Assembly: GCA_937983055.1 (NCBI GenBank)
Contig: CALJLA010000068.1
Location: forward strand, 784 to 64,783
Source: an uncultured Pseudomonadota bacterium
GTDB lineage: Bacteria > Pseudomonadota > Gammaproteobacteria > Burkholderiales > Eutrophovitaceae
DNA length: 64,000 bases
Direction of reading: 5' to 3'
In this document: in pieces, positions 1,922-18,232 of the stretch
Layout: each line of letters opens with the position of its first letter
Position numbering within the stretch: the stretch's first letter is position 1
Program-made: the position numbers and the translations under genes
Notes under the pieces: model-generated
The model's input: only the letters and a program-made list of their open reading frames with translations
What the model was told of the DNA's origin: nothing
Database searches by the model: none

Positions 1922-2680
1922 TCATGCCCGCGATCCCGCCGCTGATGTGACGCTCGGCGCCTTGAGAAACCACAATTGCCACAGCGACACGACGATCTGT
2001 ACCAGCAGGCTCGCGCCGAGCAGACCGCCACCCACGACGACGACGTAGGCATACACCGGGTCCCACTTGGTCAGAAACCAGGCCAGGATGTCGGCGAGCA
2101 TCGCTGCAAACGGCAGTACGATCAGCGTCACTTTGAGCCAGCGCCGCATCAGGGACAATCTGAAGATCAAGCCGATCGCCAATGCCAGGATGCCGATACC
2201 GAACAGATGGATGTGCGACAGCCTCATCAGCGTGTGCAGTGACTGGCCCAGATCCACCTCGGCAACCTGCTGAACGGCGGCAAAGTTCGTCAGGTCCGGC
2301 ACGTCCAGGCCTGATTCCGGATTGTGGCACACGGTACAGGATGTGCTCAGGATCGGTTCAATCGTGGTGGCGTACTCGGCTTCGCCGGCACCGCCTTTCA
2401 GCCACGCGACGATTTCGTTCCGGTTATCCAACTGGATGTAGGCCGCCATGGGCCCGCGTAAGGCGGCCTCCAGGCGCGTTCCGCTCCGGTTGCCGTAATA
2501 CGTGTCGGCGATGTCTTGGATGGACACGCCCGGCCGCCCGTCGTGACCCTCGTGGCTCGTATACAGGTAGGTCATTGCCATCAGGTAGCCCATAGCGACA
2601 ATCAACAAGAAGCTGGTGAACAGCACTTTCTCGCTGAGCGTGCAGTCGTAGAATCGGCGGTCGCGCGGCGTCGCTTGCAT
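1922..2680 (-). CDS. membrane protein with a single CxxCH haem-c motif
   Basis: 252-aa ORF with an N-terminal TM segment, a soluble segment containing CTVCH, and then about 3 TM helices. I did not recognise a named family. Confidence 0.5.
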   Translation of the reverse strand: MQATPRDRRFYDCTLSEKVLFTSFLLIVAMGYLMAMTYLYTSHEGHDGRPGVSIQDIADTYYGNRSGTRLEAALRGPMAAYIQLDNRNEIVAWLKGGAGEAEYATTIEPILSTSCTVCHNPESGLDVPDLTNFAAVQQVAEVDLGQSLHTLMRLSHIHLFGIGILALAIGLIFRLSLMRRWLKVTLIVLPFAAMLADILAWFLTKWDPVYAYVVVVGGGLLGASLLVQIVVSLWQLWFLKAPSVTSAAGSRA

Positions 2681-2701: not shown

Positions 2702-3757
2702 CTAGGTTGGACCGGTCTGTGGCGTGGCGAAGAAGTCCGCGGTGACGCCGAGCGCACGGTCGGTCGCGGCGATGGAGCGAGCCGCGTCGCGCTCCATGCC
2801 GGTCAGCGCTCGGATGGCGTCGATGGTCTCCGGCACGACGATCGCCTGGTTGAAGACCTGGTAGGTGTAGAACGCCTCCTTGCCTTCGACGGCAACACCG
2901 TCCTCCCAGAGCGCGACTTCCCACAAATCGCCTCGCGGCCGGCCGATATCGAGCATGAGTTCGGTGGTGGCATTGAGCGCCACCAGCCCGTCGTCCATGC
3001 GCAGGAATGCAATCCGCGGCGCCGCGCGAAACGCGGCCAGAACCTCATCGCGCGTCGCTTCTTGCGTCAATTCGACCCACCAGGTGTGTAGATGGCTGGA
3101 GTTGTGCGCGGCTTTCACGGCCGTCGTCACGACGTCCAGGGACGGATCGACCGTTTGCGCGTCCGGGCCCTGATGGCTCGGAATCACTTTCTCGGGAACG
3201 ACCGTATTCATGATGCCTTCCGCGTGGCCTTCCCACGGATCCGAAGCACGTCGCACGAGGGTACCCCGGGCACGTTTCAGCAGCCCTGCGGACTTCAGCG
3301 CGCCCAGGGTCCGCACAATCGAGGTCGTATTACAGGAAACCACGCGCGTGCAGTCCCGGTCCAGCGCACTGGCATAGTTGGCCTGGGCGACGAAGGAGTG
3401 CCCGGTGAGCGCATGCGACTCACCGCCCTGGAAGATCGATTTGATCTTGGCCGCGTCGTATCTTGCCCGGTTGCCGGCCGCTACGTGCTTGGGCGTGCAG
3501 TCGACAACGACCGCGGCCTCCGCCAAGAGCTCGTCGAGGGTGCCCGCACTGGCGATATCGTGCGCCGCGAAGGTCGACCGGGCCTCCGGACTCGCCGCGT
3601 ACAGGGGGATGTCCAGGCGATTGGCGGTTCGGGTGCGGTAGTCGGCGACCACGTCGGCAACACCGACCAGCGTCATGTCCGCTTGTTGCTGAACGGCATC
3701 GGCGATGCGCTTGCCGATCACCCCGTATCCGTTGATTGCGACCTTGACTCGACTCAT
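2702..3757 (-). CDS. gap: type II (archaeal-type) glyceraldehyde-3-phosphate dehydrogenase
   Basis: MSRVKVAINGYGVIGKR Rossmann N-terminus and the VVSCNTTS active-site motif of class II GAPDH. The start was moved to the internal ATG at 3757 from the ORF-track start at 3823. Confidence 0.85.
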   Translation of the reverse strand: MSRVKVAINGYGVIGKRIADAVQQQADMTLVGVADVVADYRTRTANRLDIPLYAASPEARSTFAAHDIASAGTLDELLAEAAVVVDCTPKHVAAGNRARYDAAKIKSIFQGGESHALTGHSFVAQANYASALDRDCTRVVSCNTTSIVRTLGALKSAGLLKRARGTLVRRASDPWEGHAEGIMNTVVPEKVIPSHQGPDAQTVDPSLDVVTTAVKAAHNSSHLHTWWVELTQEATRDEVLAAFRAAPRIAFLRMDDGLVALNATTELMLDIGRPRGDLWEVALWEDGVAVEGKEAFYTYQVFNQAIVVPETIDAIRALTGMERDAARSIAATDRALGVTADFFATPQTGPT

Positions 3758-3832: not shown

Positions 3833-3865
3833 ACCGTACGACCTGTACCCAACTGTCAGGTCAAG
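3833..3865 (-). promoter_or_regulatory. MerR-type promoter/operator (TTGACC-N20-TACGGT) facing the gap operon
   Basis: The reverse complement reads CTTGACCTGACAGTTGGGTACAGGTCGTACGGT, with a 20-bp spacer and the dyad GACCTG-N11-CAGGTC. It is an exact inverted copy of the site at 3909-3937. Confidence 0.55.
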
Positions 3866-3908: not shown

Positions 3909-3941
3909 CTTGACCTGACAGTTGGGTACAGGTCGTAGTCT
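3909..3941 (+). promoter_or_regulatory. MerR-type promoter/operator (TTGACC-N20-TAGTCT) facing the SDR-HMBD operon
   Basis: CTTGACCTGACAGTTGGGTACAGGTCGTAGTCT, located 59 bp upstream of the ATG at 4000. It has the same dyad as 3837-3865. Confidence 0.55.
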
Positions 3942-3999: not shown

Positions 4000-5331
4000 A
4001 TGCCATCGCATACCGGCGCAGTCTTGATTACGGGCGCCAACGGCCGCATCGGCTCCGCCGTCATGAAGCGTCTTCGCCAACAATTCAGTGACGTGGTGGG
4101 CTTTGATCGACAAGCGTCGTCGCCGCCGCCGGCGGACTGTGTCTTCATACCGGTCGACATCACCTCGGACGCCGACGTGGAGGAGGGTCTTCGGACGCTC
4201 GGCGAGCACCATGGCCGTCGGATCGCGTCGGTGATTCACCTGGCGGCGTACTATGACTTTTTGGGCCGCGCGAGCCCAAAGTACGATGCGATTACCGTCG
4301 AGGGTACGCGACGCCTGTTGCGCGGCTTGAAGTCGTTCGAGGTCGAGCAGTTCATTTTTTCCAGCACCATGTTGGTGCACGCGCCGGGCGAACCCGGGGA
4401 GTTCATCAACGAAGATTGGCCCATTGGGCCAACCTGGGCCTACCCGGAATCCAAGGTGTGCACGGAAGCGGTGATCCATGAAGAGCGGGGCAGTATTCCT
4501 GCGGTGATCCTGCGGCTGGCCGGCGTGTACGACGATGTGTGTCATTCGCCGCCACTGGCGCACCAGATTCAGCGCATCTACGAGCGACAACTGGCCGGTC
4601 ACCTGTACTCCGGCGAGACCTCGCACGGCCAGGCATTCGTTCACCTCGACGACGTCGTGGACGCCATCGAGGCGGCGGTGATGCGACGATCGGAGCTGCC
4701 CGCCGAGGTCCCCATACTCATCGGTGAGCCGGATACGCTGAGCTACGACGAGCTGCAGCACACCTTCATGCGCCTGATCCATGGCAAGTCGTCGGAAACA
4801 CACAATGTGCCCGGGCTCATCGCCAAGGTCGGCGCCTGGCTTCAGAACCTGATGCCCGGCAAGAAACCGTTCATCAAACCCTGGATGATCGATCGCGCCA
4901 ACGACCACTACGCGCTCGACATCACGCGAGCTCGTTCATTGCTGGATTGGCTGCCCAAGCATACGCTGCGGCAAACCCTGCCGAGGATGGTTGCTGCCCT
5001 GCAGGCCGATCCGATCGCCTGGTATCGCGAGCACGGCCTCGAGCCGAGCACCGCCGTCAGAGAACAGGCGCGGCAGGCCGCGCCGGAACCCGTCGCCACA
5101 GCGGCAATCGACCGCAAAAAGCCGCACAGCTGCCCGCTGCACCCGGGAGTTTGTCAATCATCGCCCGGCAATTGTCCGCGTTGCGGGACGGCACTCGAAC
5201 CGCTTGGCGCGCCAGCGACTGCGTATAGCTGCCCCATGCATCCCGAGGTCGTGAGCAAGGAACCCGGTCGCTGCCCGAAGTGCGGCATGCCGCTGGAACG
5301 ATGTGACATCCCGGAGGAAGGCCATGCATGA
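4000..5331 (+). CDS. NAD(P)-dependent epimerase/dehydratase-family SDR fused to two C-terminal heavy-metal-binding (HMBD) zinc-ribbon-like motifs
   Basis: TGANGRIG Rossmann motif and YPESK catalytic YxxxK. The C-terminus carries [24 protein letters not shown] and [24 protein letters not shown]. The start was set at the ATG at 4000. Confidence 0.75.
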
Positions 5332-6913
5332 CCATCATGCCGGGCACGGACACACCACGGCGGCAGACTCCGCTGACGAGTACACCTGCCCCATGCACCC
5401 GGAGGTGGTGCAGAACGAACCGGGGGACTGTCCGAAATGCGGCATGACCCTGGTGTTGCGCGATTCGGCCAAACCGGCGGCTGGACACGGCGACATGATG
5501 GTCGAGAGCCACCGCAATATGCTCTGGCCGCATTATCTCAACCTGATGCTCGGCCTCTGGTTGCTGTTGAGCCCGTTCACGCTCGGTTACATGAGCGATT
5601 TCGTGCCCGATGCCAAGCAGCTCTGGGTTATGGCCGATCGCGGATTGCCGCCGTTCGAGCTGCGCAATCTGTGGATGACCTGGAGCGATGTGATCAGCGG
5701 CATCCTGGTCATCGTCTTCAGCGTCCTGTCAGCCGATGCCTGGCGGCGCAATCCCTGGGCGCAATGGGCCAACGCCTTCGTCGGCGTGTGGCTGTTGTTG
5801 GCGCCGCTGGTGTTCTGGACACCCCTGCCTGAGGCCTATGCCAACGGTACCCTGGTCGGCGGTCTGGTCATCGCGCTCTCGGTGCTCATCCCGATGATGC
5901 CGGGGATGAGCATGGCCGGCATGATGGGCAAGCCGGATGTGCCGCCGGGCTGGGCCTACACGCCGTCGAGCTGGTTGCAGCGCATGCCGATTGGTGTACT
6001 CGCCCTGATTGGCTTTCTTATCGCGCGCGTGCTCGGCGCCTATCAGCTCGGCCACATCGATACCGTCTGGGAGCCGTTTTTCGCCGGTGTCGGCGAGAAC
6101 AAGGACGTGATGAACGGCACCGAGTCCATCATCACCTCGGACGTCTCCAAGGCCTGGCCGATCGCCGACGGCGCGCTGGGCGCTATCGTCTACACGCTCG
6201 AACTGGCCATGACCTGGATGGCCGGCAAGGACCGCTGGCGCACCATGCCCTGGATGGTGCTCGGGCTGGCAGTGCTGATCGTACCGCTGGGCGTGGTCAG
6301 CATCTATTTCATTATCATCCAGCCGATCGATATCGGTACCTGGTGCACGTTGTGCCTGATTGCCGCACTGGCGATGGCGGTGATGATTCCGTATTCGCTC
6401 AACGAGTTCGTCGCCATGGGACAGTTCCTGGTCTGGTCGCGCAGGCAGGGCAAGCCGTTCTGGCGCACCTTCTGGACCGGCGACGCCATGGACGGCGGTA
6501 GCGACGATGATGCCAGGGGGCTTGTAGCCAGCCCGCGGGAGCAATGGGCGCAGGCCACGCGCGGCGTGACCTATCCCTGGACCTTGAATCTCAGCATCGG
6601 CATCGGTGTCTGGCTCACGTTCACGCGCCTGACCTTCGGCAATGCGGGCGCCATGGCCAATAGCGATCACCTGATCGGTGCGCTGGTGGTGACGTTCTCG
6701 ATCATGGCCTGGGCCGAGGTCGGACGCGCGGTGCGCTTCATCAACGTGCCCTTCGGCGCATGGTTGATCGCCGCGCCCTGGTTGCTCGACGGCGCAGGGT
6801 CGTCACTGGCTGCCTGGAACGGCGTTATTGCCGGCATACTGCTCATCGTGCTGGCCATCCCTCGAGGCACGATCAAGGAGTCTTACGCAGGCTGGGATCG
6901 GCACATTGTCTAG
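5324..6913 (+). CDS. membrane protein: N-terminal HMBD + SPW-repeat-like segments + VKOR-like core
   Basis: [24 protein letters not shown] is followed by [14 protein letters not shown] and [13 protein letters not shown] (SPW-like). A polytopic core carries WCTLCLIAA (CxxC in a TM helix, as in VKOR). A GGAGGAAG RBS lies before the ATG at 5324, and there is an 8-nt overlap with the upstream gene. Confidence 0.65.
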
Positions 6914-7036
6914 CGTCGACGGCTCCGGTACCGGCGTCCGGCTCGAACGCAAGTGTCTGGCCAGTCTCCCCGAACCGTTAACGCGCCGGCACTCAAGGCC
7001 GGGGCGGCGCCCGGATTCAGCAAAGGAGGATCCACA

Positions 7037-8047
7037 ATGCAACTAGGAATGTTTGGTCTGGGGCGCATGGGCAGCAACATGGTGCGGCGGCTCATGAACG
7101 ACGGGCACGAGTGCGTGGTCTACAACCGCAGCGAAGGCGCCGTTCGACAGCTGCAAAGCGAAGGCGCACTTGGGGTGTTTTCGCTCGAGGAACTGATTGT
7201 CCGCCTGGAGCGCCCCCGCCGCATCTGGTTGATGATTCCGGCTGCCGTCGTCGATGACGTTCTGGCGCGCCTGGTGCCGTTGCTCGACAGCGACGACATC
7301 GTGATCGACGGCGGCAACTCGAATTACCGCGACGATATACGCCGCGGTACCGAACTCGGACAGCAAGGTGTTCATTATCTCGACGTCGGCACCAGCGGCG
7401 GGGTGGCCGGGCTGGAACGCGGCTACTGCCTGATGATCGGCGGCGACACGGACGTCGTCTCGCAGCTCAGCCCGATTTTCGCAAGCCTCGCGCCGGGTGT
7501 CGCGGCGGCAACGAAGACCCCGGGCCGAGGCCCGGGCACGGCGGAGCAGGGCTATCTGCACTGCGGTCCGCACGGCGCAGGGCATTTCGTCAAGATGGTG
7601 CACAACGGCATCGAGTACGGCGTGATGCAGTCCTATGCGGAAGGCTTCAACATTTTGCGCAACGCCAATATCGGCAAGCGCCAGCACGATGTCGATGCTG
7701 AGACCGCGCCAACGCAGGATCCGGCACATTACGCCTACGACTTCGACCTGGCAGAGATCGCCGAGTTGTGGCGCCGCGGCAGCGTTATCGCCTCCTGGCT
7801 GCTCGATCTCACGGCGGCCGCGCTGTTGCGTGATCCGGCCTTGCAGCGTTACGCGGGCCGGGTTTCGGACTCCGGCGAAGGCCGCTGGACCATCACTGCG
7901 GCGATCGAAGAAGGCGTTCCGGCGCCCGTGTTGAGTGCGGCGCTTTATGCCCGGTTCAGCTCACGCGGTGAGGCGGAGTTCGCAAACCAGGTGCTCTCGG
8001 CAATGCGCGAGGGCTTTGGCGGTCACGTCGAAAAGCCGGACGATTGA
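7037..8047 (+). CDS. gnd: 6-phosphogluconate dehydrogenase, decarboxylating (short form)
   Basis: MQLGMFGLGRMGSNMVRRL NAD(P)-binding N-terminus, with YLDVGTSGG and HFVKMVHNGIEYG motifs. An AAAGGAGGA RBS lies upstream. Confidence 0.85.
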   Translation: MQLGMFGLGRMGSNMVRRLMNDGHECVVYNRSEGAVRQLQSEGALGVFSLEELIVRLERPRRIWLMIPAAVVDDVLARLVPLLDSDDIVIDGGNSNYRDDIRRGTELGQQGVHYLDVGTSGGVAGLERGYCLMIGGDTDVVSQLSPIFASLAPGVAAATKTPGRGPGTAEQGYLHCGPHGAGHFVKMVHNGIEYGVMQSYAEGFNILRNANIGKRQHDVDAETAPTQDPAHYAYDFDLAEIAELWRRGSVIASWLLDLTAAALLRDPALQRYAGRVSDSGEGRWTITAAIEEGVPAPVLSAALYARFSSRGEAEFANQVLSAMREGFGGHVEKPDD

Positions 8048-8049
8048 GC

Positions 8050-9432
8050 ATGGACACCCACGACGCCGATGCACTGGTCATATTCGGGGTCACCGGCGAC
8101 CTGGCGTACAAGAAGATCTTTCCGGCCCTGCAGGCGTTGTTCGAGCGCGGCGATCTGAGCCTGCCCGTCGTCGGCGTGGCACGGGGCGGCTGGACCCTGG
8201 AGCGGCTGCGCGAGCGGGTGCGGGCGAGCCTTCGGGAGCATGGCAGCGTCGATGCTGACGCGTTCGCGCGCCTGTCGGCGCAACTGCGCTACGTCGACGG
8301 CGACTATCGCGATCCAGCCACCTACGACCGACTGAAGCAGGCACTGCACGACAGCCAGCGGCCACTGCACTACCTGGCGATCGCGCCGGGGATGTTCGAG
8401 ACCGTGGTGCGGGGGCTGGCGAGCGCCGACTGTTCCCGCCACGCACGCGTCGTGGTCGAGAAGCCGTTTGGCCGCGACCTGGCCTCAGCCCGTGCGCTCA
8501 ACCGCACGCTGCATCAGGTATTCCCGGAAACCGCGGTGTTTCGCATCGATCATTACCTGGGCAAGGAGGCGGTTCAAAACCTGTTGTACTTCCGCTTTGC
8601 CAACACCTTCCTCGAGCCGATTTGGAATCAGCATCACGTCGCTGCTATTCACGTGACCATGGCCGAACGGTTCGGCGTGCAGGGTCGTGGCAAATTTTAC
8701 GAGGAGGTGGGCGCCATTCGCGACGTGGTGCAAAACCACCTGCTGCAGGTCATCGCGCTGCTGACGATGGATGCGCCGACGGGTCGCGATCCGCAAGCGA
8801 CGCGCGCGGAGAAGCTGCGCATTTTGCGTGCGATGCGGCCGGTCGATCCCTCGCAGCTCGTGCGCGGGCAATATCGTGGCTATCGTGACGAGCCCGGCGT
8901 CGCGGGCGACTCCGACGTTGAGACCTTCGCCGCATTTCGCTTGTACATCGACACCTGGCGCTGGTCCGGTGTGCCGATCGTGGTGCGTACCGGCAAATGC
9001 CTGCCGCTGACGGTCACGGAGGTGATCGTGCAGCTGTGCCAGCCGCCGCTCGCCATTTTCGATCCAGTCACGCCGGCAGCGGCAAACTACTTTCGCTTCC
9101 GCTTGAGCCCGGAGGTCGTCATCGCGGCCGGCACGCGCGTCAAGCAACCGGGGGACACCATGCGGGGCGAAGCCGCGGAGTTGATCGCCCGTCACGCACG
9201 CGCCGGGGCCGACCTGCCCTATGAACGGCTATTACGCGATGCCATCCGCGGTGACCCGGCACTGTTTACCCAGGACGAAAGCGTGGAGGCGGCCTGGCAG
9301 GTCGTCGAACCGATGCTCAGGGCGGGTGTGTCGGTAACGGAGTACGAGCCGGACACCTGGGGACCGACCAGGCTGGCGCCACAACCGGAGGGATGGCGAA
9401 ATCCCGAAGCGGAGGCGAGCAAACCGTGTTAA
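8050..9432 (+). CDS. zwf: glucose-6-phosphate 1-dehydrogenase
   Basis: IFGVTGDLAYKKIFPAL and RIDHYLGKE signature motifs. The start overlaps or abuts the gnd stop. Confidence 0.9.
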   Translation: MDTHDADALVIFGVTGDLAYKKIFPALQALFERGDLSLPVVGVARGGWTLERLRERVRASLREHGSVDADAFARLSAQLRYVDGDYRDPATYDRLKQALHDSQRPLHYLAIAPGMFETVVRGLASADCSRHARVVVEKPFGRDLASARALNRTLHQVFPETAVFRIDHYLGKEAVQNLLYFRFANTFLEPIWNQHHVAAIHVTMAERFGVQGRGKFYEEVGAIRDVVQNHLLQVIALLTMDAPTGRDPQATRAEKLRILRAMRPVDPSQLVRGQYRGYRDEPGVAGDSDVETFAAFRLYIDTWRWSGVPIVVRTGKCLPLTVTEVIVQLCQPPLAIFDPVTPAAANYFRFRLSPEVVIAAGTRVKQPGDTMRGEAAELIARHARAGADLPYERLLRDAIRGDPALFTQDESVEAAWQVVEPMLRAGVSVTEYEPDTWGPTRLAPQPEGWRNPEAEASKPC

Positions 9433-9507
9433 TCACGAAGACACAACACGCGCGGGCTCGGGTTCGCGGCCGGCGTGGGTAAGCGGTAGTTGAGTTAAGG
9501 AGTCAAG

Positions 9508-9672
9508 ATGGACTGGCTGGCAGAGAATTGGTTTTGGGTGCTGATCGGTATTGTGTTTGTCGCGATGCACCTGTTCGGACATGGTGGCCATGGTGGCCGC
9601 GGCGGGCATGCCGGTCACGGCGGCTCGCGGGATGCTGAGCGCGGCGATCAGAAGCAGCAACACCGGCATTGA
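9508..9672 (+). CDS. small membrane/His-rich peptide, DUF2933-like
   Basis: 54-aa ORF below the ORF-track cutoff: MDWLAENWFWVLIGIVFVAMHLFGHGGHGGRGGHAGHGGSRD.... An AAGGAG RBS sits 6 nt upstream. It lies immediately 5' of a P1B ATPase, which is the usual DUF2933 context. Confidence 0.5.
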   Translation: MDWLAENWFWVLIGIVFVAMHLFGHGGHGGRGGHAGHGGSRDAERGDQKQQHRH

Positions 9673-9690
9673 CCGGTCAACGGGACAATC

Positions 9691-12060
9691 ATGAGCAAAT
9701 CTACTATTGAAGTCGCGGGACTGCTGTCCGCGTCAAGCGCGGCCGGCGTCGAAAAGCAATTGATGCGACTGCGCGGCGTACGCAAAGCCGAAGTCAATTA
9801 TGTGGCTGGCAGCGCGACCGTCACCTACGACGAAAACGTCATCGATCTCGCGGCAATCAAGGCACAAATTCATGCCTGCGGGTACCACTGCCGGGGGGAG
9901 ATGGTGCCGAAACACATCTGCGCCCCGGCCAATCCGGCCGACGGGCCAACGGCTGCGGTCGCCGATCATCCGGCAACCCATCATCATGACACGCACGCTG
10001 CGCCCGAAGCACAAGGCGACGAGACGGCGGGCATGGCGCACGAAATGGGCCACGGTGGCGGGATGGACATGCAGGCCATGGTGCGCGATATGCGCAAGCG
10101 CTTCTGGGTCTGTTTGGCGTTCACCGTGCCGATCTTCATTTACTCGCCGATGGGGGGGCTGTTCACACCGCCAGCGCCGCCCTTCGGCCTGGACCTCAAC
10201 CTGTGGCTTTTCTTGTTGGCCAGTATCGCGGTCATCTGGCCAAGCTGGCCATTCTTCGTGGCCGCCTGGCGGGCGCTGAAAAACGGTGTCCTCAACATGG
10301 CGGTGCTGGTGGTGCTGTCGGTCGGTACCGGCTACTTGTTCAGTCTCGGGGCGACGTTTTTTTTCGACGGTGTGCAATTCTTCGAGGCGGTGGCGGTACT
10401 GCTGGTGTTCATCCTGCTCGGGCACTGGTTGGAGATGCGCGCTCGCGCCGGCGCCTCCGATGCGATTCGCTCTCTGATGGATCTCGCGCCGCCCAAGGCC
10501 ACCGTGCTGCGCGATGGCCGGGAACTGGAGATACCGACGGCGGAGGTGGCCAAAGACGACATCGTCGTGATCCGGCCCGGCAACAAGATCCCGGTGGACG
10601 GCGAGGTGCTCGAAGGCGAATCCCAGGTGGATGAGTCCATGCTCACCGGCGAATCCATGCCGGTCGGCAAGAAGCCCGGCGACACGGTGATCGGCGCCAC
10701 GATCAACAAAAGCGGCAGTTTCAAGTACCAGGCGACCAAGGTGGGCGCCGATACCGCCCTGGCACAGATCGTCAAGCTGGTACAGGAAGCACAGAACTCC
10801 AAGGCCCCCGCCCAGTTGCTGGCGGACAAAGCCTCGCAATGGCTGGTGGTGATCGCGATTGTCATTGGTCTGCTGACGTTTGCGGCCTGGTTCTGGTGGC
10901 TCGGTCAGACCTTGCTGTTTGCCGTCACTCTTACGATCACGGTATTCGTCATCGCCTGCCCGGATGCTCTGGGCCTCGCCACACCCATGGCGGTGATGGT
11001 AGGCACGGGCCTTGGTGCGAAGAACGGCATTCTGTTCAAGAATGCTTCCGCCCTCGAAGAGGCCACCAAGCTCGATATCGTCGTTTGCGACAAGACCGGT
11101 ACGTTGACCATGGGTGAACCGCAAGTCGTGGAGGTCGTCGCCGGCGATGCCGGCGAGGATGCCGTTCTTAGCCTCGCCGCCACCGTGGAACAAGGCTCGG
11201 ACCATCCACTGGCCCAGGCCATTCAGCGTCGCGCCGAGGGACTCACGCTCTCGCCGCTGCGTGGCTTTGAGAACATTGAGGGCAAGGGTGCGCGCGCCGA
11301 GGTGGACGGTCAAACCGTGTTCCTCGGTAATCGGCGTTTGATGGACGAGGAGGGTGTTGACCTGGCAAGCCTCGCAGACGAGGCGGCTCGCCTGCAGGGC
11401 GCCGGTCAGACCGTGGTGCACATTGCCCACGGCGGCCGCCTGGTGGGACTGATCGCGATCGCCGATGCGCCACGACCGACGGCGGCAGCGATGGTGGCAA
11501 AAATGCGCGAGCGGGGTGTGGAGGTTGCCATGCTCACCGGCGACAATCAGGCGACCGCCGAGCGTATTGCGGGGGAACTCGGTATACAGACGGTGATAGC
11601 CGACGTGTTACCCGCGCAAAAAGCCGACAAGATCAAGGAACTGCAAGCGCAAGGCAAGAAGGTCGGGATGGTCGGCGACGGCGTCAACGATGCGCCAGCA
11701 TTGACCCAGGCGGAGGTTGGATTCGCGATCGGCGCCGGTACCGACGTTGCCATGGAAAGCGCTGACGTCGTGCTCATGAAAAGCGATCCCTATGACGTGC
11801 TTGGCGCTATCGAACTGTCGCGTGCCACGCTGCGCAAGATGCACCAGAATTTGTTCTGGGCGGTGGCGTACAACGTGATTGCCTTTCCGGCGGCGGCTGG
11901 GGTTTTCTATCCACTGGTGATCAGTCCTGAAGTGGCGGCACTTGCGATGTCGGGCAGCTCGGCGTTGGTGGCAGTGAACGCGTTGCTGCTGAAACGCACG
12001 CGCCTGGAGGGCATCCGAACCGTGCGGTCCGCTACCAGCATAGATCCGCAAAGCGACTGA
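9691..12060 (+). CDS. heavy-metal P1B-type ATPase, CopB-like (His-rich N-terminus, CPD transmembrane motif)
   Basis: [15 protein letters not shown], YNxxxxP and MSGSS motifs. The TM motif reads [12 protein letters not shown]. The N-terminal HMA-like fold has SASS in place of CxxC and is followed by a His/Met-rich stretch. Confidence 0.9.
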
Positions 12061-12090: not shown

Positions 12091-12122
12091 TTGACGTGTG
12101 TCGGACATACACGTTGTAGAGT
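12091..12122 (+). promoter_or_regulatory. candidate MerR-type promoter (TTGACG-N20-TAGAGT) with ACGTGT/ACACGT dyad
   Basis: TTGACGTGTGTCGGACATACACGTTGTAGAGT lies between the ATPase stop and pgm. It has a long spacer and a dyad ACGTGT-N9-ACACGT. Confidence 0.4.
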
Positions 12123-12281: not shown

Positions 12282-13997
12282 GTGAGTGGCGTCGCCGAGT
12301 CAGCCACAGACACGAGCGTAGTCGCAGGGAAACCCGCGTCACGCGAGATGCTGATTGACGTATCGAAGCTCGTAGAGGCGTACCACGCCGAGCGGCCCAA
12401 TCCTCGTGTTGCGGCCGAACGAGTCGCGTTCGGGACGTCGGGCCACCGGGGTTCGGCGCTTTCCAGGAGTTTCAACCAGAACCACATTCTCGCCATCAGC
12501 CAGGCCATTTGTGACTACCGACGGACACAGGAGTTCGACGGGCCACTGTTTATTGGCATGGACACCCATGCCCAGTCCGAGCCAGCGTTTGCCACGGCGC
12601 TCGAGGTGCTGGCGGCGAATGGCGTCCAGGCTATGATCGCCGGCGACGAAAAATACACTCCTACGCCCGCCATCTCTCACGCTATCTTGCAGTACAATCG
12701 CACCGGCCCAGCAGGTCTGGCCGACGGCATCGTCATTACCCCATCACACAACCCGCCCGACAGCGGCGGCTTCAAGTACAACCCACCGACCGGCGGACCG
12801 GCGAACACGTCAGTGACGGACTGGATCGAAGCCAGGGCCAACGAGCTGTTGCAACAGGACCTGGTCGGCGTGCAGCGGATGCCGATCGAAAAGGCGCTGC
12901 GTGTCAGCACAACCCATCGCTACGATTACCTCAATACCTATGTCAACGACCTCGATCAGGTCGTTGACATGGCAACAATCCGCGCCGCCGGGATCCGCAT
13001 CGGGGTCGACCCCCTGGGCGGCGCCGGGGTCAACTACTGGCCGGCAATTGCGGAGCGATATGGCCTGGATCTGGACGTCGTCAATGCGGTCGTGGACCCG
13101 ACCTTTAGTTTCATGACGCTGGATTGGGATGGGCAGATCCGTATGGACCCGTCGTCAGAGTACGCGATGCAACGGCTAATCGCGTTCAAGGACCACTACG
13201 ACGTTGCGCTCGGCTGCGATCCTGACCATGACCGGCACGGCATCGTCGTGCCGGATGAGGGTTTGATGCCGGCAAATCACTATCTGGCGGTTGCCATCGC
13301 CTATCTTTACCGTCACCGGCCGGGCTGGCGCTTCCCCGCAGCCGTGGGCAAAACCATCGTCAGCAGCCAGATGATTGACCGGGTGGCCGAGAGTGTCGAG
13401 CGGCGCGTCTATGAAGTGCCGGTCGGCTTCAAGTGGTTCGTGGCAGGCCTCAAGGATGGATCGCTGGGGTTTGCCGGCGAAGAGAGTGCCGGGGCGTCAT
13501 TCGCGCGACGTGACGGACACGTCTGGACCACGGACAAAGATGGCCTGGTGCCGGCGCTGCTCGCCGCCGAGATGACTGCGCGAAGGGGTCGAAACCCTGG
13601 CGAAGCCTATCGCGAACTGGTGCAGGCGTTCGGTGCTTGCGCCTACACCCGCATTGAAGCCCCGGCTACGGCCGCGGAGAAATCGATCATCGCCAACCTC
13701 ACAGCGGAACAGGTTCAAGCGACCGAGCTCGCCGGCACAGCTGTCGACGGCGTCCTGACCCGTGCGCCGGCCAACAACGCATCCATCGGCGGCTTGAAGG
13801 TTACGACGGCACAGGGCTGGTTTGCTGCGCGTCCGTCCGGCACAGAAGCCCTGTACAAAATCTACGCCGAGAGTTTTCGCAACACGGATCACCTGCAACG
13901 TATCGTCAACGAAGCACAACATCTGATTGGCGAAGTACTCGCAGCCGCCGCAGGGTCCGGCCCGTCGGCTGCGACATCGGCAAGGAAGGCCCCGTGA
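12282..13997 (+). CDS. pgm: phosphoglucomutase (alpha-D-glucose phosphate-specific)
   Basis: FGTSGHRGSA and TPSHNPPDSGGFKYN motifs. By recall it is collinear with E. coli Pgm along its whole length. Confidence 0.9.
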   Translation: MSGVAESATDTSVVAGKPASREMLIDVSKLVEAYHAERPNPRVAAERVAFGTSGHRGSALSRSFNQNHILAISQAICDYRRTQEFDGPLFIGMDTHAQSEPAFATALEVLAANGVQAMIAGDEKYTPTPAISHAILQYNRTGPAGLADGIVITPSHNPPDSGGFKYNPPTGGPANTSVTDWIEARANELLQQDLVGVQRMPIEKALRVSTTHRYDYLNTYVNDLDQVVDMATIRAAGIRIGVDPLGGAGVNYWPAIAERYGLDLDVVNAVVDPTFSFMTLDWDGQIRMDPSSEYAMQRLIAFKDHYDVALGCDPDHDRHGIVVPDEGLMPANHYLAVAIAYLYRHRPGWRFPAAVGKTIVSSQMIDRVAESVERRVYEVPVGFKWFVAGLKDGSLGFAGEESAGASFARRDGHVWTTDKDGLVPALLAAEMTARRGRNPGEAYRELVQAFGACAYTRIEAPATAAEKSIIANLTAEQVQATELAGTAVDGVLTRAPANNASIGGLKVTTAQGWFAARPSGTEALYKIYAESFRNTDHLQRIVNEAQHLIGEVLAAAAGSGPSAATSARKAP

Positions 13998-16540
13998 GCG
14001 AGCAAATTATTGCTGACGATCTGGCTTACAGTCTGTTGCCCTTCGGCATCGAGGGTGTGGATGCGCTGGTTGAGTTGGCCCTGGATTTACGGTCCTCGTG
14101 GCATCACGGCACCGATACGCTGTGGCAGCAGCTCGATCCTGAGCTTTGGCAAGCCACCCAGAATCCCTGGGTCGTGCTGCAGACAGTCTCGCGGGAGCGG
14201 CTGGAACGCTGTCTGGCCGACGATGCTTTTCGTAAACACGTCGATAAGCTGGTCCGGAGCAGACGGGATGCGGCACGCGCCCCCGCGTGGTTCCAACAAC
14301 ACCATGCGCAAGCCCCGTTGAACGCCGCTGCCTATTTCAGCATGGAGTTCATGTTGAGCGAGGCGCTCCCCATCTACTCGGGCGGGCTCGGCAACGTGGC
14401 GGGCGATCAGCTGAAAGCGGCGAACGATCTCGGCGTGCCCGTGATTGGCGTGGGCTTGCTATACCAACAAGGCTATTTTCGCCAACTGATAGGCCCGGAC
14501 GGCATCCAACAGGCGGCGTATCCCTACAACGATCCCGGACAGCTGCCTGTGACGCCGTTGCGCCATGCCAACGGTGAGTGGCTGCGACTGAAGCTGGACC
14601 TGCCGGGTCATTCGATCTGGCTGCGTGCCTGGCAAGCCCGGGTCGGTCGTTTGAAACTGTATTTGTTGGACACCAACGATGCGGCCAATCATCCGCCCTA
14701 TCGCGGCATTACCAGCGAACTGTATGGCGGGGGATCGGAATTGCGCCTGATGCAGGAAATGGTGCTGGGCATCGGCGGTTGGCGTTTGCTGTCGACGCTC
14801 GGTGTCCAACCCGACGTCTGCCACCTCAATGAAGGGCACGCGGCACTGGTGGTGCTCGAACGCGCGCGCCAGTTCATGCTTGACACCGGTGCGAGCTTCG
14901 CTGTGGCGCTCGCCGCAACGCGCGCCGGTAACCTGTTCACCACGCACACGGCGGTGCCCGCTGGCTTCGACCGCTTCACCTCGGCGCAGATGGAGCACTG
15001 CCTGGGCACCTACGCCGAGACGCAGCTCGGTATTGCTCGCGATGAGTTGTTGGCTCTGGGCCGTCAGCGTCCCGATGACGTTACCGAGCCGTTCAATATG
15101 GCCTATCTCGCGATTCGCGGTTGCGGCGCGGTCAACGGGGTAAGCTGGCTGCACGGCCGGGTCAGCCGTCGCTTGTTCGCTGCCTTGTTTCCGCGCTGGG
15201 CCGAGCCGGAAGTGCCGATCGGACACATCACCAATGGTGTGCACACACCGACCTGGGATTCCGCGCAGGCGGACGCCTTGTGGACCGAGGCCTGCGGCCA
15301 GGAACGCTGGCTGGGCACCACCGAAGCGCTGGGGCGCGACATCTGCTGTGTCTCGGATGCGGAGCTTTGGCAGTTCCGCAGCGCCGCCAGCGCAGCGCTG
15401 GTTGATTACGTTCGCGAGCGTCTGTCGCAACAACGGGCTGCCGCCGGCCCGACACCGAATGCGATCGAGAGCGGCGCGCAGCCGCTCGATCCGGGGACGC
15501 TCACCATCGGCTTCGCGCGCCGTTTTGCGACCTACAAGCGACCGGACCTGCTGCTGCACGATCCGGCGCGATTGTTGAAGTTGCTCACGGACCCCGAGTG
15601 CCCGGTGCAACTGGTCATTGCCGGCAAGGCGCATCCGGCAGACGCCGCCGGGCAGGCGCTGATCCGGCGCTGGATCGAATTCGCACAGTGGCCCGACGCG
15701 AAGGATCGCGTGGTCTTTCTCAGCGACTACGACATGCACATGGCTGAGCATCTGGTGCAGGGCGTTGACGTCTGGCTCAACACGCCGCGACGGCCGTGGG
15801 AAGCCAGCGGCACGAGCGGCATGAAGGTGTTGGTGAACGGTGGGCTCAATATCTCCGAACTGGATGGCTGGTGGGCGGAAGCCTACACGCCGGAGGTGGG
15901 CTGGGCGCTGGGCGACGGTCAGGAACACGGTGACGATCCGGCCTGGGATGCGACTGAGGCCGAAGCGCTTTATGACCTTCTGGAACACAAGGTCGCTCCA
16001 GAATTCTACCAGCGAGACGAGCACGGCATCCCGCGCGCCTGGGTGGCGCGCATGCGCAACAGCATGGCGGAGTTGACGCCGCGGTTTTCCACCAATCGCA
16101 CGGTACGCGAATACACCGAACGCTATTACCTACCGGCTGCCGCCGCGTACCGCGCCCGCGCGGCGAATTCGGGGCAGTTGGCGGAGAGCATCGTGAACTG
16201 GCGTCGCCGGCTGGACGATCACTGGCCGACCCTGCAATTCGGCGAACTCACCGTTGCAACGAGCCACGAGCAGCACGACTTTTCGATTGAGCTCGATCTG
16301 GGCGAGTTGGGTGCGGACGATATCACGGTCGAACTTTACGCCGAGCCGCAGGAGGACCAGGCACCGGTGCGTGTACCCATGACACCCGGTGAGACGTCGA
16401 ACGGTACCGACAAGCGTTGGCTGTACGCCGCCTCGGTACCCGCCGAACGACCACCCGAGCACTACACAGCACGAGTGGTGCCGCGGTATCCCGACGTGGC
16501 GGTGCCGCTGGAAGCGCTGCCTATCCTTTGGCAGCGATGA
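13994..16540 (+). CDS. glgP: alpha-glucan (glycogen/maltodextrin) phosphorylase, GT35
   Basis: 848-aa ORF with GGLGNVAGDQLKA and EASGTSGMK (PLP-lysine region). The GTG start overlaps the pgm stop (GTGA). Confidence 0.9.
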   Translation: MSEQIIADDLAYSLLPFGIEGVDALVELALDLRSSWHHGTDTLWQQLDPELWQATQNPWVVLQTVSRERLERCLADDAFRKHVDKLVRSRRDAARAPAWFQQHHAQAPLNAAAYFSMEFMLSEALPIYSGGLGNVAGDQLKAANDLGVPVIGVGLLYQQGYFRQLIGPDGIQQAAYPYNDPGQLPVTPLRHANGEWLRLKLDLPGHSIWLRAWQARVGRLKLYLLDTNDAANHPPYRGITSELYGGGSELRLMQEMVLGIGGWRLLSTLGVQPDVCHLNEGHAALVVLERARQFMLDTGASFAVALAATRAGNLFTTHTAVPAGFDRFTSAQMEHCLGTYAETQLGIARDELLALGRQRPDDVTEPFNMAYLAIRGCGAVNGVSWLHGRVSRRLFAALFPRWAEPEVPIGHITNGVHTPTWDSAQADALWTEACGQERWLGTTEALGRDICCVSDAELWQFRSAASAALVDYVRERLSQQRAAAGPTPNAIESGAQPLDPGTLTIGFARRFATYKRPDLLLHDPARLLKLLTDPECPVQLVIAGKAHPADAAGQALIRRWIEFAQWPDAKDRVVFLSDYDMHMAEHLVQGVDVWLNTPRRPWEASGTSGMKVLVNGGLNISELDGWWAEAYTPEVGWALGDGQEHGDDPAWDATEAEALYDLLEHKVAPEFYQRDEHGIPRAWVARMRNSMAELTPRFSTNRTVREYTERYYLPAAAAYRARAANSGQLAESIVNWRRRLDDHWPTLQFGELTVATSHEQHDFSIELDLGELGADDITVELYAEPQEDQAPVRVPMTPGETSNGTDKRWLYAASVPAERPPEHYTARVVPRYPDVAVPLEALPILWQR

Positions 16541-16574
16541 GCGCGGCAGGACAGACAAGAAGGGGCTACTGACA

Positions 16575-17252
16575 ATGCAAGACTACATCGCCCATTCGGG
16601 TACCTGGGCCTTGGCGCTGATCATGATCGTAATCGCCTCCTGGCTGCTGTATCGCTTCCTGGCGCCGAAGAGCTGGCGGGAGTGGGCAAGCGCCGGTCTG
16701 GTGCAGGCCTTCATCATCGCCCTGTACGCGGAAATGTACGGCTTCCCGCTGACGATTTATCTGCTGGTCCGCTTCTTTGGCATGGACAGAATCAATCTGA
16801 ACGCCAATTTGTGGTCGACATTACTCGGTATGGGTGAGACCGGCATGATGATCGCGATGCTGCTGGGCTACGGCCTGCTGTTTATCGGCATCGGCCTGTT
16901 TATCCAGGGGTGGCGCGAGCTCTACCGCGCACGCAAGGAAAACCGGCTCGCAACGGATGGCCTGTACGGCCTAGTGCGCCATCCACAGTACTCGGGACTG
17001 TTTCTCGCATTATTCGGCGAGGGGGTCGTGCATTGGCCGACCGTGTTTTCCATTACCGTGTTTCCGTTGATCGTCGTGGCTTACGTGCTGCTCGCACGAC
17101 GCGAGGAGAAAAAAGTGATCGCCGAGTTCGGCGATGCGTACCGCGCCTATCGGCGCCAGGTACCGATGTTCTTTCCGCGTGCGGGCCAGTGGAAGCAACT
17201 CATTGCGCGCTCCAATATTTCAGAGCCAGGACGCCATGACCGTCCAGGATGA
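16575..17252 (+). CDS. isoprenylcysteine carboxyl methyltransferase (ICMT)-family membrane methyltransferase (CzcN-like)
   Basis: LATDGLYGLVRHPQYSGLFLALFG motif and a polytopic profile. The start was set at the ATG at 16575 (MQDYIAH). Confidence 0.7.
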   Translation: MQDYIAHSGTWALALIMIVIASWLLYRFLAPKSWREWASAGLVQAFIIALYAEMYGFPLTIYLLVRFFGMDRINLNANLWSTLLGMGETGMMIAMLLGYGLLFIGIGLFIQGWRELYRARKENRLATDGLYGLVRHPQYSGLFLALFGEGVVHWPTVFSITVFPLIVVAYVLLARREEKKVIAEFGDAYRAYRRQVPMFFPRAGQWKQLIARSNISEPGRHDRPG

Positions 17253-17296: not shown

Positions 17297-17328
17297 TTGA
17301 CTTGAGTCCGGCATACAGGTCCTAAAGT
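17297..17328 (+). promoter_or_regulatory. MerR-type promoter (TTGACT-N20-TAAAGT)
   Basis: TTGACTTGAGTCCGGCATACAGGTCCTAAAGT with dyad GACTTG-N11-CAGGTC, located 55 bp upstream of the HMA gene. Confidence 0.5.
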
Positions 17329-17382
17329 TACCAAGAATCGCACGGCTTGCGCGCAACCTTTCCGGCAACCAGGAGTCTCACG

Positions 17383-17634
17383 ATGCAAACCGAACGCTTG
17401 TCCATTCGCGGCATGACGTGCAGTGGCTGCGTGAATACGGTGACCCGCGCTCTGCGCACGATTGATGGCGTCCACGATACCGATGTCTCGCTCGAATCGG
17501 GCACGGCGGTCGTACAGTTCGACCCGGCGTCGATTTCGATCGAGGACCTGGGCCTCGCCGTGCGGCACGCGGGCTACGACACCACAGGCGAGCCCGGTCC
17601 GCCGCAATCCGACCGTCGTTGTTGCTGCGGATAG
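17383..17634 (+). CDS. heavy-metal-associated (HMA) domain protein with a C-terminal CCCG tail
   Basis: IRGMTCSGCVNTVTRAL HMA motif. The C-terminus ends in RRCCCG. Confidence 0.8.
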   Translation: MQTERLSIRGMTCSGCVNTVTRALRTIDGVHDTDVSLESGTAVVQFDPASISIEDLGLAVRHAGYDTTGEPGPPQSDRRCCCG

Positions 17635-17689: not shown

Positions 17690-18154
17690 TCACGAGTCTC
17701 GATGATCCAGAGGATGGCGCTGCGTTTCCAGTGGCCAGTAACGACGCATCGCGAGGAACGTGAACGACGTTGACCAGCCGATGAGCACCAGGCCGTTCAA
17801 TGCCTCAATGCCGCTGATCACGCGCAGATGTCCATCCGGAAATACATCGCCGAGACCCAGCGATGTATACATGACCGTGGAGTAATACAGGTAGTCCATG
17901 AAGCCTTCGGCCGGTTGACCGAGAATTGTTCCCACCGCAAAGCCGCGTTCCAGGACAAAAAAGGCCCCGGCGTACAGGCTGACCTCAAGCATGTGGGCTG
18001 AGAAGGCACCGATCACCACGACCAGCACCCGCGATTGTCCGGCCGGCCTGCACCGCGGCAACAATGCCGAGGTACGACGCAAGACCTCAAAGTGAATCAG
18101 CATGGTGGCGAGCACCAGCAGAAAACTCAAGCTCATGGCGATCAGCATCAACAC
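17690..18154 (-). CDS. two-TM ion channel family protein (K+-channel-like pore)
   Basis: 154-aa ORF whose pore-loop-like YSTVMYTSLGLGD resembles the TxGYGD filter region. Confidence 0.55.
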   Translation of the reverse strand: MLMLIAMSLSFLLVLATMLIHFEVLRRTSALLPRCRPAGQSRVLVVVIGAFSAHMLEVSLYAGAFFVLERGFAVGTILGQPAEGFMDYLYYSTVMYTSLGLGDVFPDGHLRVISGIEALNGLVLIGWSTSFTFLAMRRYWPLETQRHPLDHRDS

Positions 18155-18200: not shown

Positions 18201-18232
18201 TTGACTTGTTAGTTACGTGCAGGTTTTACGCT
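18201..18232 (+). promoter_or_regulatory. MerR-type promoter (TTGACT-N20-TACGCT)
   Basis: TTGACTTGTTAGTTACGTGCAGGTTTTACGCT with dyad GACTTG-N11-CAGGTT, in the divergent gap between the channel gene and cfa. Confidence 0.45.

Follow-up and report, generated by a model that had tools for sequence, protein, structure and literature searches.

Architecture and conservation of the gene pair

The present analysis concerns two adjoining genes, here called gene A and gene B, on a 64,000-nucleotide stretch of DNA from an uncultured Pseudomonadota bacterium of the Eutrophovitaceae (GenBank assembly GCA_937983055.1, contig CALJLA010000068.1, positions 784 to 64,783 of the forward strand), which is referred to as the window throughout and belongs to a 91-kb metagenomic contig, ENA ERZ869938 NODE_130. 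Gene A encodes an extended short-chain dehydrogenase/reductase (SDR) and gene B a polytopic membrane protein with a core similar to vitamin K epoxide reductase (VKOR), and both carry copies of the HMBD domain. We consider it probable that A and B together form a single redox enzyme tied to copper homeostasis. The features of the pair are as follows:

4000..5331, plus strand: gene A, 443 aa, an extended SDR (residues ~8-345) followed by two C-terminal HMBD copies
5131..5196 (about), plus strand: HMBD copy 1 of gene A, degenerate, the second HMBD stretch of the Pfam search
5224..5298, plus strand: HMBD copy 2 of gene A, canonical, Pfam HMBD at residues 409-433
5324..6913, plus strand: gene B, 529 aa, a 12-helix membrane protein
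5381..5455, plus strand: HMBD of gene B, Pfam HMBD at residues 20-44 (E-value 7.4e-13)
5891..5926, plus strand: Met-rich loop of gene B, residues 190-201, between helices 4 and 5, predicted to be cytoplasmic
5987..6397, plus strand: VKOR-like core of gene B, residues 222-358, helices 5-8, with a cap-like periplasmic loop
6344..6355, plus strand: CxxC motif C341-T-L-C344 (WCTLC) in helix 8, at its predicted periplasmic end

The stop of gene A and the start of gene B overlap by 8 nt (ATGCATGA, 5324-5331), as had been reported in an earlier description made from the DNA letters alone (the sequence-only reading), and a GGAGGA Shine-Dalgarno sequence lies just 5' of the overlap. Homologues of gene B number more than 5800 in a large protein collection, and many of the best matches, from Sulfuriferula, Acidithiobacillus and Sulfuricaulis, are single SDR-HMBD-SPW-VKOR proteins of ~890-920 aa. 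Such fusions are also abundant in metagenomes. A scan with one genome per species detected the family in at least 449 species genomes of Alpha-, Beta- and Gammaproteobacteria, with cultured carriers including Stutzerimonas, Pseudomonas, Paracoccus, Sphingomonas, Mesorhizobium, Microvirga and Cupriavidus.

Genomic neighbourhoods were sampled at 80 loci, 73 of which had upstream DNA informative for the position of the SDR. An extended SDR was encoded directly upstream on the same strand in 68 of the 73, specifically as in-frame fusions of ~850-920 aa in 53 loci and as split genes in 15 (contig-truncated fusions were reclassified), so that the co-occurrence on which the sequence-only reading had staked its pairing is indeed found. 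Eleven of the 15 split pairs have an overlapping stop and start, either as ATGA or as the 8-nt overlap. Because natural fusions and overlapping split pairs recur in this way, A and B very likely work together as one functional unit. Chance does not account for these features: the motif scores exceed curated cut-offs, and dozens of unrelated genomes show the same pairing.

A more distant fused orthologue (~44% identity) is found on pSymB of Sinorhizobium meliloti (L086:8427-10970; also NC_003078.1 16483-19447), a genetically tractable host, where it is kept in dozens of strains between a Gfo/Idh/MocA oxidoreductase and a ZIP metal transporter. A simple pattern search found no recognisable CxxC or Met loop in it.

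The dehydrogenase half

The Pfam Epimerase model matches residues 8-232 of gene A (E-value 2.5e-24), and further Pfam matches were obtained to 3Beta_HSD, GDP_Man_Dehyd, RmlD_sub_bind and NAD_binding_4 (fatty-acyl reductase). The protein has the hallmarks of extended SDRs, namely the Rossmann motif TGxxGxxG, a catalytic Ser/Thr and YxxxK, here present as TGANGRIG (residues 11-18), S122/T123 and Y146-K150 (YPESK), and in addition D36. Conservation of SDR and VKOR residues was computed over 77 fused orthologues, in which the T and the three G of TGxxGxxG, the beta-2 Asp and YxxxK are each 100% conserved, S122 98% and T123 94%. Pfam and motifs are thus in agreement with the sequence-only description of a complete extended SDR with two C-terminal HMBDs, the first of them degenerate. 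The SDR is cytoplasmic and, judged by its motifs, looks catalytically competent. By general SDR coenzyme-specificity rules, the Asp36 that closes beta-2, conserved throughout, makes NAD(H) a more likely coenzyme than NADPH. The proposal of an NAD(P)H-driven module would accordingly have to be narrowed to NADH.

None of the NCBIfam equivalog cut-offs was reached by gene A: its matches to GalE (54 bits vs a cut-off of 262), HpnA (50 vs 368) and OleD-type enzymes (41 vs 580) are all sub-threshold. In structure, the homologous SDR domain of the P0017 fusion model is closest to extended SDRs of RmlB/GalE type, with target-normalised TM-scores of ~0.7-0.8.

The membrane half

Gene B is composed of an N-terminal HMBD, an SPW four-helix bundle, a VKOR-like four-helix bundle and a second SPW four-helix bundle. 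The combination of HMBD, SPW helices and a VKOR-like core had been read from the sequence before, and all three components score above the Pfam gathering thresholds: HMBD (PF19335) with 48.6 bits (cut-off 23.6), SPW (PF03779) in three stretches with 84.7 bits (31.5) and VKOR (PF07884) with 78.7 bits (27.5). The SPW family is marked by an S/A-P-W/F motif on paired transmembrane helices, and the corresponding motifs of gene B are SPF in helix 1, APL in helix 3 and APW in helix 11. An AlphaFold2 model from a 108-sequence alignment (predicted local distance difference test, pLDDT, 92.5; predicted template modelling score, pTM, 0.86) has twelve transmembrane helices. Foldseek searches against the PDB returned no full-length analogue of gene B and none for the SPW bundles; the credible matches are VKOR structures only and cover the central four helices over ~177 columns (6wv3, probability 0.89; 6wv6, 0.80; 4nv5, 0.57; also 3kp9). 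The alignment with VKORs was made with a local profile of the VKOR region, as a whole-family profile against the PDB, in which fused rows dominated, gave only SDR matches. In the family profile C341 and C344 align with what we take to be C132 and C135 of human VKORC1, and D282 with presumably N80, which contacts the quinone, so that a pocket may have been retained; these assignments are provisional.

The helix count, the cytoplasmic SDR that precedes the membrane part in fusions and a positive-inside bias of Lys/Arg (22 in predicted inner vs 5 in predicted outer loops of gene B) would put the N- and the C-terminus, as well as the Met-rich loop, on the cytoplasmic side. Accordingly oriented, the model predicts the VKOR cap loop and the CxxC to face the periplasm, which is the canonical VKOR orientation. 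The Met-rich loop is 78-100% conserved per position, and the family has many invariant polar residues on both membrane faces. When fusion P0017 was modelled, both halves folded well (pLDDT 85), with an overall pTM of 0.54.

Five cysteines occur in gene B, three in the HMBD plus C341 and C344. The loop cysteine pair of VKORs has no counterpart between residues 40 and 340, and no other conserved cysteine was found across the gene B family; the earlier observation that the core keeps only the WCTLC cysteines is correct. The CxxC itself is kept in 85% of the fused orthologues (85-95% across alignments) and replaced by S..A in 11 of the 77. These CxxC-less orthologues, from Microvirga, Sphingomonas, Sphingosinicella, Novosphingopyxis, Erythrobacter and Falsiroseomonas, read WSTPAL or WSTLAL and keep the SDR motifs and the Met loop; the plasmid copy of Sphingobium cloacae, which reads WSTLAL, is central in a copAB-copCD-cueR-ATPase cluster. 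No thioredoxin-like partner is fused to gene B. Redoxin/TlpA-like genes were found within 8 kb in 8 of the 80 loci and none was identified beside the pair in the window. Since the CxxC is lost in ~15% of orthologues and lies at the periplasmic side, across the membrane from the cytoplasmic SDR, an obligatory thiol-disulfide mechanism is unlikely, and for the same reasons the disulfide oxidoreductase proposed by the sequence-only reading has become doubtful. Haem b was considered as a transmembrane relay and rejected, as the wider family has no conserved histidine set.

The HMBD copies

The HMBDs of gene A reach 59.3 bits (E-value 3.4e-16) in two stretches, the best at residues 409-433, so that both genes exceed the Pfam threshold in the profile search that had been suggested as a check. 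The degenerate changes in copy 1 are M to L, E to G and M to T. With phmmer, copy 2 of gene A and the HMBD of gene B match the N-terminal domain of LpCopA, the CopA of Legionella pneumophila (PDB 8OVL and 3RFU). The HMBD motifs of both genes are genuine. Family members nevertheless carry anything from none to three copies; the domain is present in 23 of the 80 loci and absent from 57, and a typical 850-aa fusion has no room for it. HMBD is thus an accessory and not a defining part of the family, and its earlier treatment as a defining part of the module does not hold.

The HMBD of LpCopA has been solved by nuclear magnetic resonance with and without Cu(I), binds Cu(I) via a three-sulfur site and was proposed to act as a copper sensor that relieves autoinhibition, not in ion delivery (Hu et al., FEBS J 2024, PMC11970713). 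By analogy with LpCopA, the only protein for which Cu(I) binding by an HMBD and a regulatory effect have been described, Cu(I) bound to the three HMBD copies might tune or release the enzyme in this sub-clade, and genes A and B offer a second protein context in which HMBD copper sensing can be tested.

A putative shared promoter-operator and the probable operon

Upstream of gene A we identified a putative promoter-operator that recurs in the window. It consists of TTGACC, a 20-bp spacer that holds the dyad GACCTGn-N7-nCAGGTC, and TAnnnT. The copies and the genes downstream of gene B are as follows:

3837..3864, minus strand: promoter copy on the GAPDH side (TTGACCTGACAGTTGGGTACAGGTCGTA), an exact pattern match that faces the divergent type II GAPDH operon
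3910..3937, plus strand: promoter copy of the A-B operon, with -35 TTGACC, dyad GACCTG..CAGGTC and -10-like TAGTCT
12091-12118, 17297-17324, 18201-18228, 24781-24808, 28760-28787 and 37086-37113: other promoter copies, pattern matches
17770-17797: weaker promoter copy, pattern match
7037..8047, plus strand: gnd-like 6-phosphogluconate dehydrogenase (NCBIfam NF007161 and TIGR00872 above cut-off; start taken from L001)
8044..9432, plus strand: zwf glucose-6-phosphate dehydrogenase (TIGR00871, 458.7 bits)
9691..12060, plus strand: HMA-type copper P1B ATPase (TIGR01511, TIGR01525), the last gene before the promoter copy at 12091

Searched as TTGACCTG-N11-CAGGTCGTA or TTGACCTG-N11-CAGGTYGTA, with a TAnnnT -10 at 20-bp spacing, the pattern was observed 9 times in the window vs 0.14 expected. 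Eight copies are located just upstream of genes, namely gene A, the GAPDH operon, PGM-GlgP, a CopZ-like open reading frame (ORF), CMAS, an SPFH pair, multicopper oxidase-CopB and a membrane cytochrome c. The copy at 3910..3937 ends 63 nt before the ATG of gene A and makes up, with the copy at 3837, a 42-nt inverted repeat in the region that separates the divergent genes for GAPDH and the SDR. The site at 12091 shows compensating changes in both half-sites (ACGTGT..ACACGT). In four syntenic genomes (L014, L026, L027 and L034), and in these only, the motif lies 70-160 nt 5' of the SDR gene; the arrangement seen on the GAPDH side is kept in the same four.

MerR-family promoters such as PcopA of E. 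coli have the same geometry. As is characteristic of CueR/MerR promoters, the -35 and -10 hexamers are 19-20 bp apart with a dyad operator in the spacer, and two MerR-family genes are present in the window, at about 22.2 kb and 41.4-42.07 kb. From this geometry we infer that the motif acts as a CueR/MerR-type promoter-operator, and it appears to define an island-wide regulon. Given the shared promoter-operator, the A-B pair is predicted to be co-regulated with classical copper-detoxification genes. Promoter copies flank the block 4000-12060, none lies inside it, and the 123-nt gap after gene B contains neither a promoter copy nor a terminator-like site, which makes it plausible that A, B, gnd, zwf and the ATPase form one transcription unit. 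The operon with gnd, zwf and a P-type ATPase that the sequence-only reading had proposed is hence plausible for the window; as a general association the gnd/zwf linkage fails, being confined to one lineage (about 5-6 of 73 loci). The gnd-like gene is syntenic in L014, L027 and L034, and the wider gnd/zwf/GAPDH/PGM/GlgP context was found in L014, L026, L027 and L034 and partly in L003, L004 and L022.

Two further observations concern genes behind these promoters. Directly behind one promoter copy is a CopZ-like HMA copper chaperone with the motif GMTCSGC (ORF 17347-17634, plus strand), which falls below the 200-aa ORF list and is easily missed. The island also encodes a complete route from glucan to NAD(P)H, comprising glgC, a CBM48 protein, GlgP, PGM, Zwf, the Gnd-like enzyme and an archaeal-type (type II) GAPDH (2702-3757 on the minus strand, 7037-9432 and 12282-16540; L001:34-1751), partly under the same promoter type. 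A CueR-type regulon of this composition would tie copper detoxification to membrane remodelling and stored-glucan mobilisation in a chemolithotroph-type genome.

Copper islands as the genomic setting

The window is a copper island. It encodes CusRS, two MerR regulators, two multicopper oxidases, CopB and a CDF transporter, in addition to two membrane cytochromes c, an outer-membrane factor and an HMBD-bearing CopA. The last of these (ORF 41878-44286) is the CopA-type ATPase with two HMBD copies noted earlier, which we could confirm. Across the 80 loci, clustering with Pfam confirmation identified P1B ATPases, multicopper oxidases, CusA/CusB, CopB, DUF326 (four-helix copper binders), DUF411, MerR regulators, CDF transporters and CusS-type kinases as the commonest neighbours. 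A strictly copper-related gene, defined as P1B ATPase, multicopper oxidase, CusA/B, CopB, DUF326 or DUF411, is present within 8 kb in 34 of the 53 loci of at least 12 kb. On annotated plasmids of Cupriavidus oxalaticus, Sphingobium cloacae and Stutzerimonas stutzeri the gene is located inside cop/cus clusters, and in Alteromonas it adjoins a plasmid-borne cytochrome oxidase operon and copD. The island context and the shared CueR-type promoter make the metal link a strong one, and the metal is copper. Of the two metals that the sequence-only reading had named, Cu(I) and Hg(II), only the former is supported. Nothing points to Hg(II), and we rejected it: the only mercury-related gene of the window, an ORF with a MerB domain, is 55 kb distant and unconnected to the pair.

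Another sugar-related pair, of a PRK07109 classical SDR and a GH15 trehalase-like enzyme, recurs beside the VKOR-family gene in other lineages. The recurrent set consists of a four-helix copper-binding protein, GH15 and the PRK07109 SDR with a C-terminal transmembrane helix, and it occurs on plasmids of Stutzerimonas (L084:8375-13279) and Cupriavidus (L089:5457-11398) as well as in L031, L038, L046, L047 and L051-L053. We considered that the PRK07109 SDR might substitute for the absent extended SDR in Pseudomonas and Stutzerimonas and rejected this as a general rule, because the same PRK07109-GH15 pair is also found behind fused proteins.

Putative periplasmic redox partners

A membrane-anchored monohaem cytochrome c is encoded directly downstream of gene B in 7 loci. 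The window contains a homologue (38% identical) under the shared promoter, and in sphingomonads a cytochrome c/FTR1 gene adjoins the family gene. Three metagenomic proteins (P0135, P0141 and P0188) are fusions of an SDR, two HMBDs, a transmembrane helix and a cytochrome c. At the locus of one SDR-cytochrome c fusion (L087:8001-9944; neighbours at L087:5521-5955 and 7397-7969) the neighbouring genes encode two standalone SPW proteins, a PLD-like protein and CMAS, and the locus has no VKOR domain. The Aq_1264_TM protein of the divergent GAPDH operon co-occurs with the SDR-VKOR pair in 7 related loci. As haem partners recur, the module seems to have a redox-active periplasmic end.

The copy of the Aq_1264_TM protein in the window (1922-2680, minus strand) has a CxxCH motif (CTVCH) in a predicted periplasmic loop and may be a membrane-anchored c-type cytochrome.

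Other features of the window

A fusion protein of PepSY_TM, 2Fe-2S ferredoxin, FAD-binding and NAD-binding domains (56397-58274, plus strand) may be a membrane metal or siderophore reductase. A second PepSY_TM protein (55637-56446, plus strand) is encoded beside it, and the fusion gene is downstream of a FecR/TonB-receptor pair. The MerB (alkylmercury lyase) domain mentioned above is C-terminal in a 390-aa protein with a long, unassigned N-terminal part (61722-62894, plus strand). No Pfam match was obtained for the ORFs 35519-36772 (minus strand, 417 aa) and 50081-50743 (minus strand, 220 aa), and the 287-aa ORF after GlgP (16389-17252, plus strand) has only weak NCBIfam matches to ICMT- and MddA-like methyltransferases.

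Possible function of the A-B module

Our preferred reading, which we put forward tentatively, is that of a copper-induced, Cu(I)-tuned and NADH-dependent reductase of a membrane quinone or similar lipid that conveys reducing power to the outer face or to a periplasmic cytochrome c. A and B would then be the two halves of one membrane-bound oxidoreductase of the copper-stress response. Copper stress would turn the operon on, and the SDR would oxidise NADH and pass the hydride to the carbonyl of a membrane isoprenoid, most likely a quinone, which gene B would present at its highly conserved cytoplasmic face, the Met-rich loop included. The resulting quinol might serve at the VKOR-like pocket of the outer face, or leave the protein close by, and there reduce a periplasmic partner, be it the membrane cytochrome c that is often encoded next to the pair, the CxxC where present, or Cu(II). 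NAD(P)H would be supplied by the co-regulated glycogen, pentose-phosphate and GAPDH genes. In sum, copper-stressed cells would use NADH to supply their envelope with quinol or reducing power, through a domain type that normally needs neither flavin nor Fe-S. The bolder version, a new class of NADH dehydrogenase in the form of a copper-induced and here HMBD-gated, flavin- and Fe-S-free NADH:quinone (to periplasmic cytochrome c) oxidoreductase, we regard as unlikely. Were it true, the cell would have a copper-proof route that keeps the quinone pool and the envelope reduced while copper poisons Fe-S-dependent respiratory enzymes, and in this island the NADH:quinone module would be fuelled by a co-regulated glycogen/pentose-phosphate supply.

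Several points speak against a quinone reductase. The closest relatives of the SDR, in sequence as in structure, are enzymes of nucleotide sugars and lipid ketoreductases; known quinone reductases are not among them. According to the models, SDR and VKOR-type pocket would be on opposite membrane faces, and quinone reduction would need a second, putative cytoplasmic site; how the SDR docks to the membrane part cannot be read from the fusion model of P0017 with its pTM of 0.54. Tyr139 of human VKORC1 has no conserved counterpart if, as we assume provisionally, the human sequence is numbered correctly here. The VKOR core may not be essential to the chemistry, given that SDR-cytochrome c fusions occur together with SPW proteins and without a VKOR domain. 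About a third of the long loci have no copper gene within 8 kb, and literature searches found no biochemical or genetic study of any family member.

Among the other explanations, a modifier of membrane lipids is somewhat unlikely. The SDR would in this case reduce or epimerise a keto or hydroxyl group of a polyprenyl, hopanoid, sterol or fatty-acid lipid held by the SPW/VKOR bundles, and the outcome would be copper-induced membrane remodelling rather than electron transfer. The best sub-threshold matches of the SDR, to HpnA (hopanoid-associated), 3-beta-HSD, OleD-type 2-alkyl-3-oxoalkanoate reductases and NAD_binding_4, fit such a role, as do the neighbouring CMAS (CFA-synthase-like) genes, which adjoin in 8 loci and stand under the same promoter in the window, and other neighbours encoding an ICMT/PEMT-like methyltransferase, a PLD/cardiolipin-synthase-like protein and a lycopene-cyclase-domain protein; the CxxC loss in one clade would be harmless. 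However, no match to a lipid family reaches its curated cut-off, no complete lipid pathway is found in the neighbourhood, and the recurrent cytochrome c partners and fusions would be left unexplained. Outside this family, the VKOR fold is, to our knowledge, associated with quinone-type substrates alone. It is, in turn, very improbable that the SDR is a plain epimerase or dehydratase of nucleotide sugars which a chance fusion joined to an unrelated membrane protein. Generic Epimerase, GDP_Man_Dehyd and RmlD matches in Pfam, the RmlB/GalE structural neighbours and some source annotations as 'dTDP-glucose 4,6-dehydratase' would agree with it, but equivalog models stay far under their cut-offs (e.g. 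the GalE score given above), pairing and fusion are kept across three proteobacterial classes, and no glycosyltransferase or polysaccharide genes are associated with the loci. The 'dehydratase' label is an annotation carry-over that is found even on membrane-only proteins such as P0021.

Two explanations centre on the CxxC. In a thiol-disulfide machine, electrons from NAD(P)H would pass through this motif to repair copper-damaged periplasmic disulfides in the manner of DsbD/ScsB, or the protein would generate disulfides like VKOR/DsbB. Copper causes periplasmic disulfide stress, against which Scs/DsbC systems protect, and the exact VKOR register of the CxxC, its 85-95% conservation and the TlpA/redoxin genes near 8 loci would be in line with such a machine. 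We consider it rather unlikely all the same, as both electron-shuttling loop cysteines of every characterised VKOR are absent, SDR motifs and Met loop persist in the 11 fused orthologues with Ser..Ala, one of which lies inside a canonical cop cluster, and neither a membrane thiol relay nor a conserved set of haem histidines links the cytoplasmic SDR to the periplasmic CxxC; moreover, we know of no SDR that reduces disulfides. Quite improbable, too, is a copper-handling membrane protein, i.e. a Cu(I) conduit or membrane chaperone with the Met-rich loop, the intramembrane CxxC and the HMBDs as metal sites, in which the SDR would be an NAD(H)-sensing regulatory domain and not an enzyme. The location in copper islands, the occurrence of HMBDs elsewhere on copper pumps and CusB, the conserved Met-rich loop (invariant in the closer homologue alignment A1) and the intrahelical position of the CxxC, which recalls the CPC motif of P1B ATPases, would all suit a conduit. 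A purely regulatory domain would, however, not be expected to have catalytic Tyr and Lys and an NAD-binding motif that are 100% conserved, the CxxC is dispensable in one clade, 57 of the 80 loci have no HMBD, energy coupling is not apparent, and Foldseek revealed no similarity to a transporter fold.

Copper islands have been studied for decades, and the gene sits amid cop/cus clusters in Cupriavidus, Sphingobium, Stutzerimonas and Alteromonas and in hundreds of genomes. If the NADH-driven quinone or envelope reductase that we tentatively prefer is correct, a redox-supply arm would join the efflux, oxidation and sequestration arms of copper defence, and the VKOR fold would operate with a hydride-donating SDR in place of a thioredoxin-like partner. 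As cultured hosts carry fused orthologues, among them WP_151073253 of Cupriavidus oxalaticus, WP_049587399 of Alteromonas and the CxxC-less WP_066520820 of Sphingobium cloacae, these readings are directly testable.

Comparison with known systems

Proteins of this architecture are found in databases as 'vitamin K epoxide reductase family protein', 'NAD-dependent epimerase/dehydratase family protein' or 'SPW repeat domain-containing protein'. Full-text literature searches turned up no work on proteins of SDR-VKOR or SPW-VKOR type, in accordance with the statement of the sequence-only reading that it did not recognise a described system; a paper on a metal-resistance plasmid of Sulfobacillus only lists a hypothetical VKOR (PMC6803676).

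The same CPMHPE...PGxCPxCGM motif is found in the HMBDs of the pair and in the N-terminal domain of LpCopA, whereas here the domain is on a dehydrogenase and a membrane protein that is not an ATPase, in one to three copies, and is missing from most family members. With the extended SDRs (GalE/RmlB; HpnA, 3-beta-HSD and OleD; 4ID9) gene A shares the Rossmann TGxxGxxG, the S/T-Y-K residues and the two-domain architecture. It differs in that no equivalog threshold is reached, in the HMBD tails of this clade, and in the fusion or coupling of the family SDR to a polytopic membrane protein or a membrane-anchored cytochrome c.

Systems with a related role are less similar in structure. DsbD/ScsB/CcdA bring cytoplasmic reducing power to the periplasm in a copper-stress context, as the A-B module might, a possible analogy of role only, since the fold of A and B is unrelated, no thioredoxin donor and no cysteine relay are present, and the chemistry would be SDR hydride transfer; no similarity to these proteins was found with Pfam, NCBIfam or Foldseek. 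Two-electron NAD(P)H:quinone reductases, such as NDH-2, WrbA and MdaB of bacteria or FSP1 and NQO1 of eukaryotes, transfer electrons from NAD(P)H to a membrane quinone and have a protective role, which resembles the reaction proposed here. They are peripheral flavoproteins, whereas A and B would be a flavin-free SDR on a dedicated 12-helix scaffold of quinone-binding type.

The closest comparison for gene B is with bacterial VKOR homologues (the Synechococcus VKOR-Trx, 3KP9/4NV5, and the VKOR of M. tuberculosis) and with human VKORC1 (6WV3). Common to them are the four-helix fold, the CxxC, which occupies the same register at the outer end of helix four, the cap-like loop after the first helix, the predicted membrane orientation and, presumably, an acidic or amide residue at the position that we provisionally take to be N80 of the human protein. 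In contrast to VKORs, gene B lacks the loop cysteine pair, a periplasmic thioredoxin-like partner is not as a rule fused or adjacent, and about 15% of orthologues have lost the CxxC. Furthermore, two SPW four-helix bundles flank the core, gene B has a Met-rich cytoplasmic loop, a cytoplasmic NAD-dependent SDR is joined to it covalently or by translational coupling, and the context of the family is copper resistance and not general disulfide formation. The family may be described as a VKOR-fold protein whose thioredoxin/loop-cysteine relay was swapped for a hydride-donating SDR and which was recruited to copper defence.

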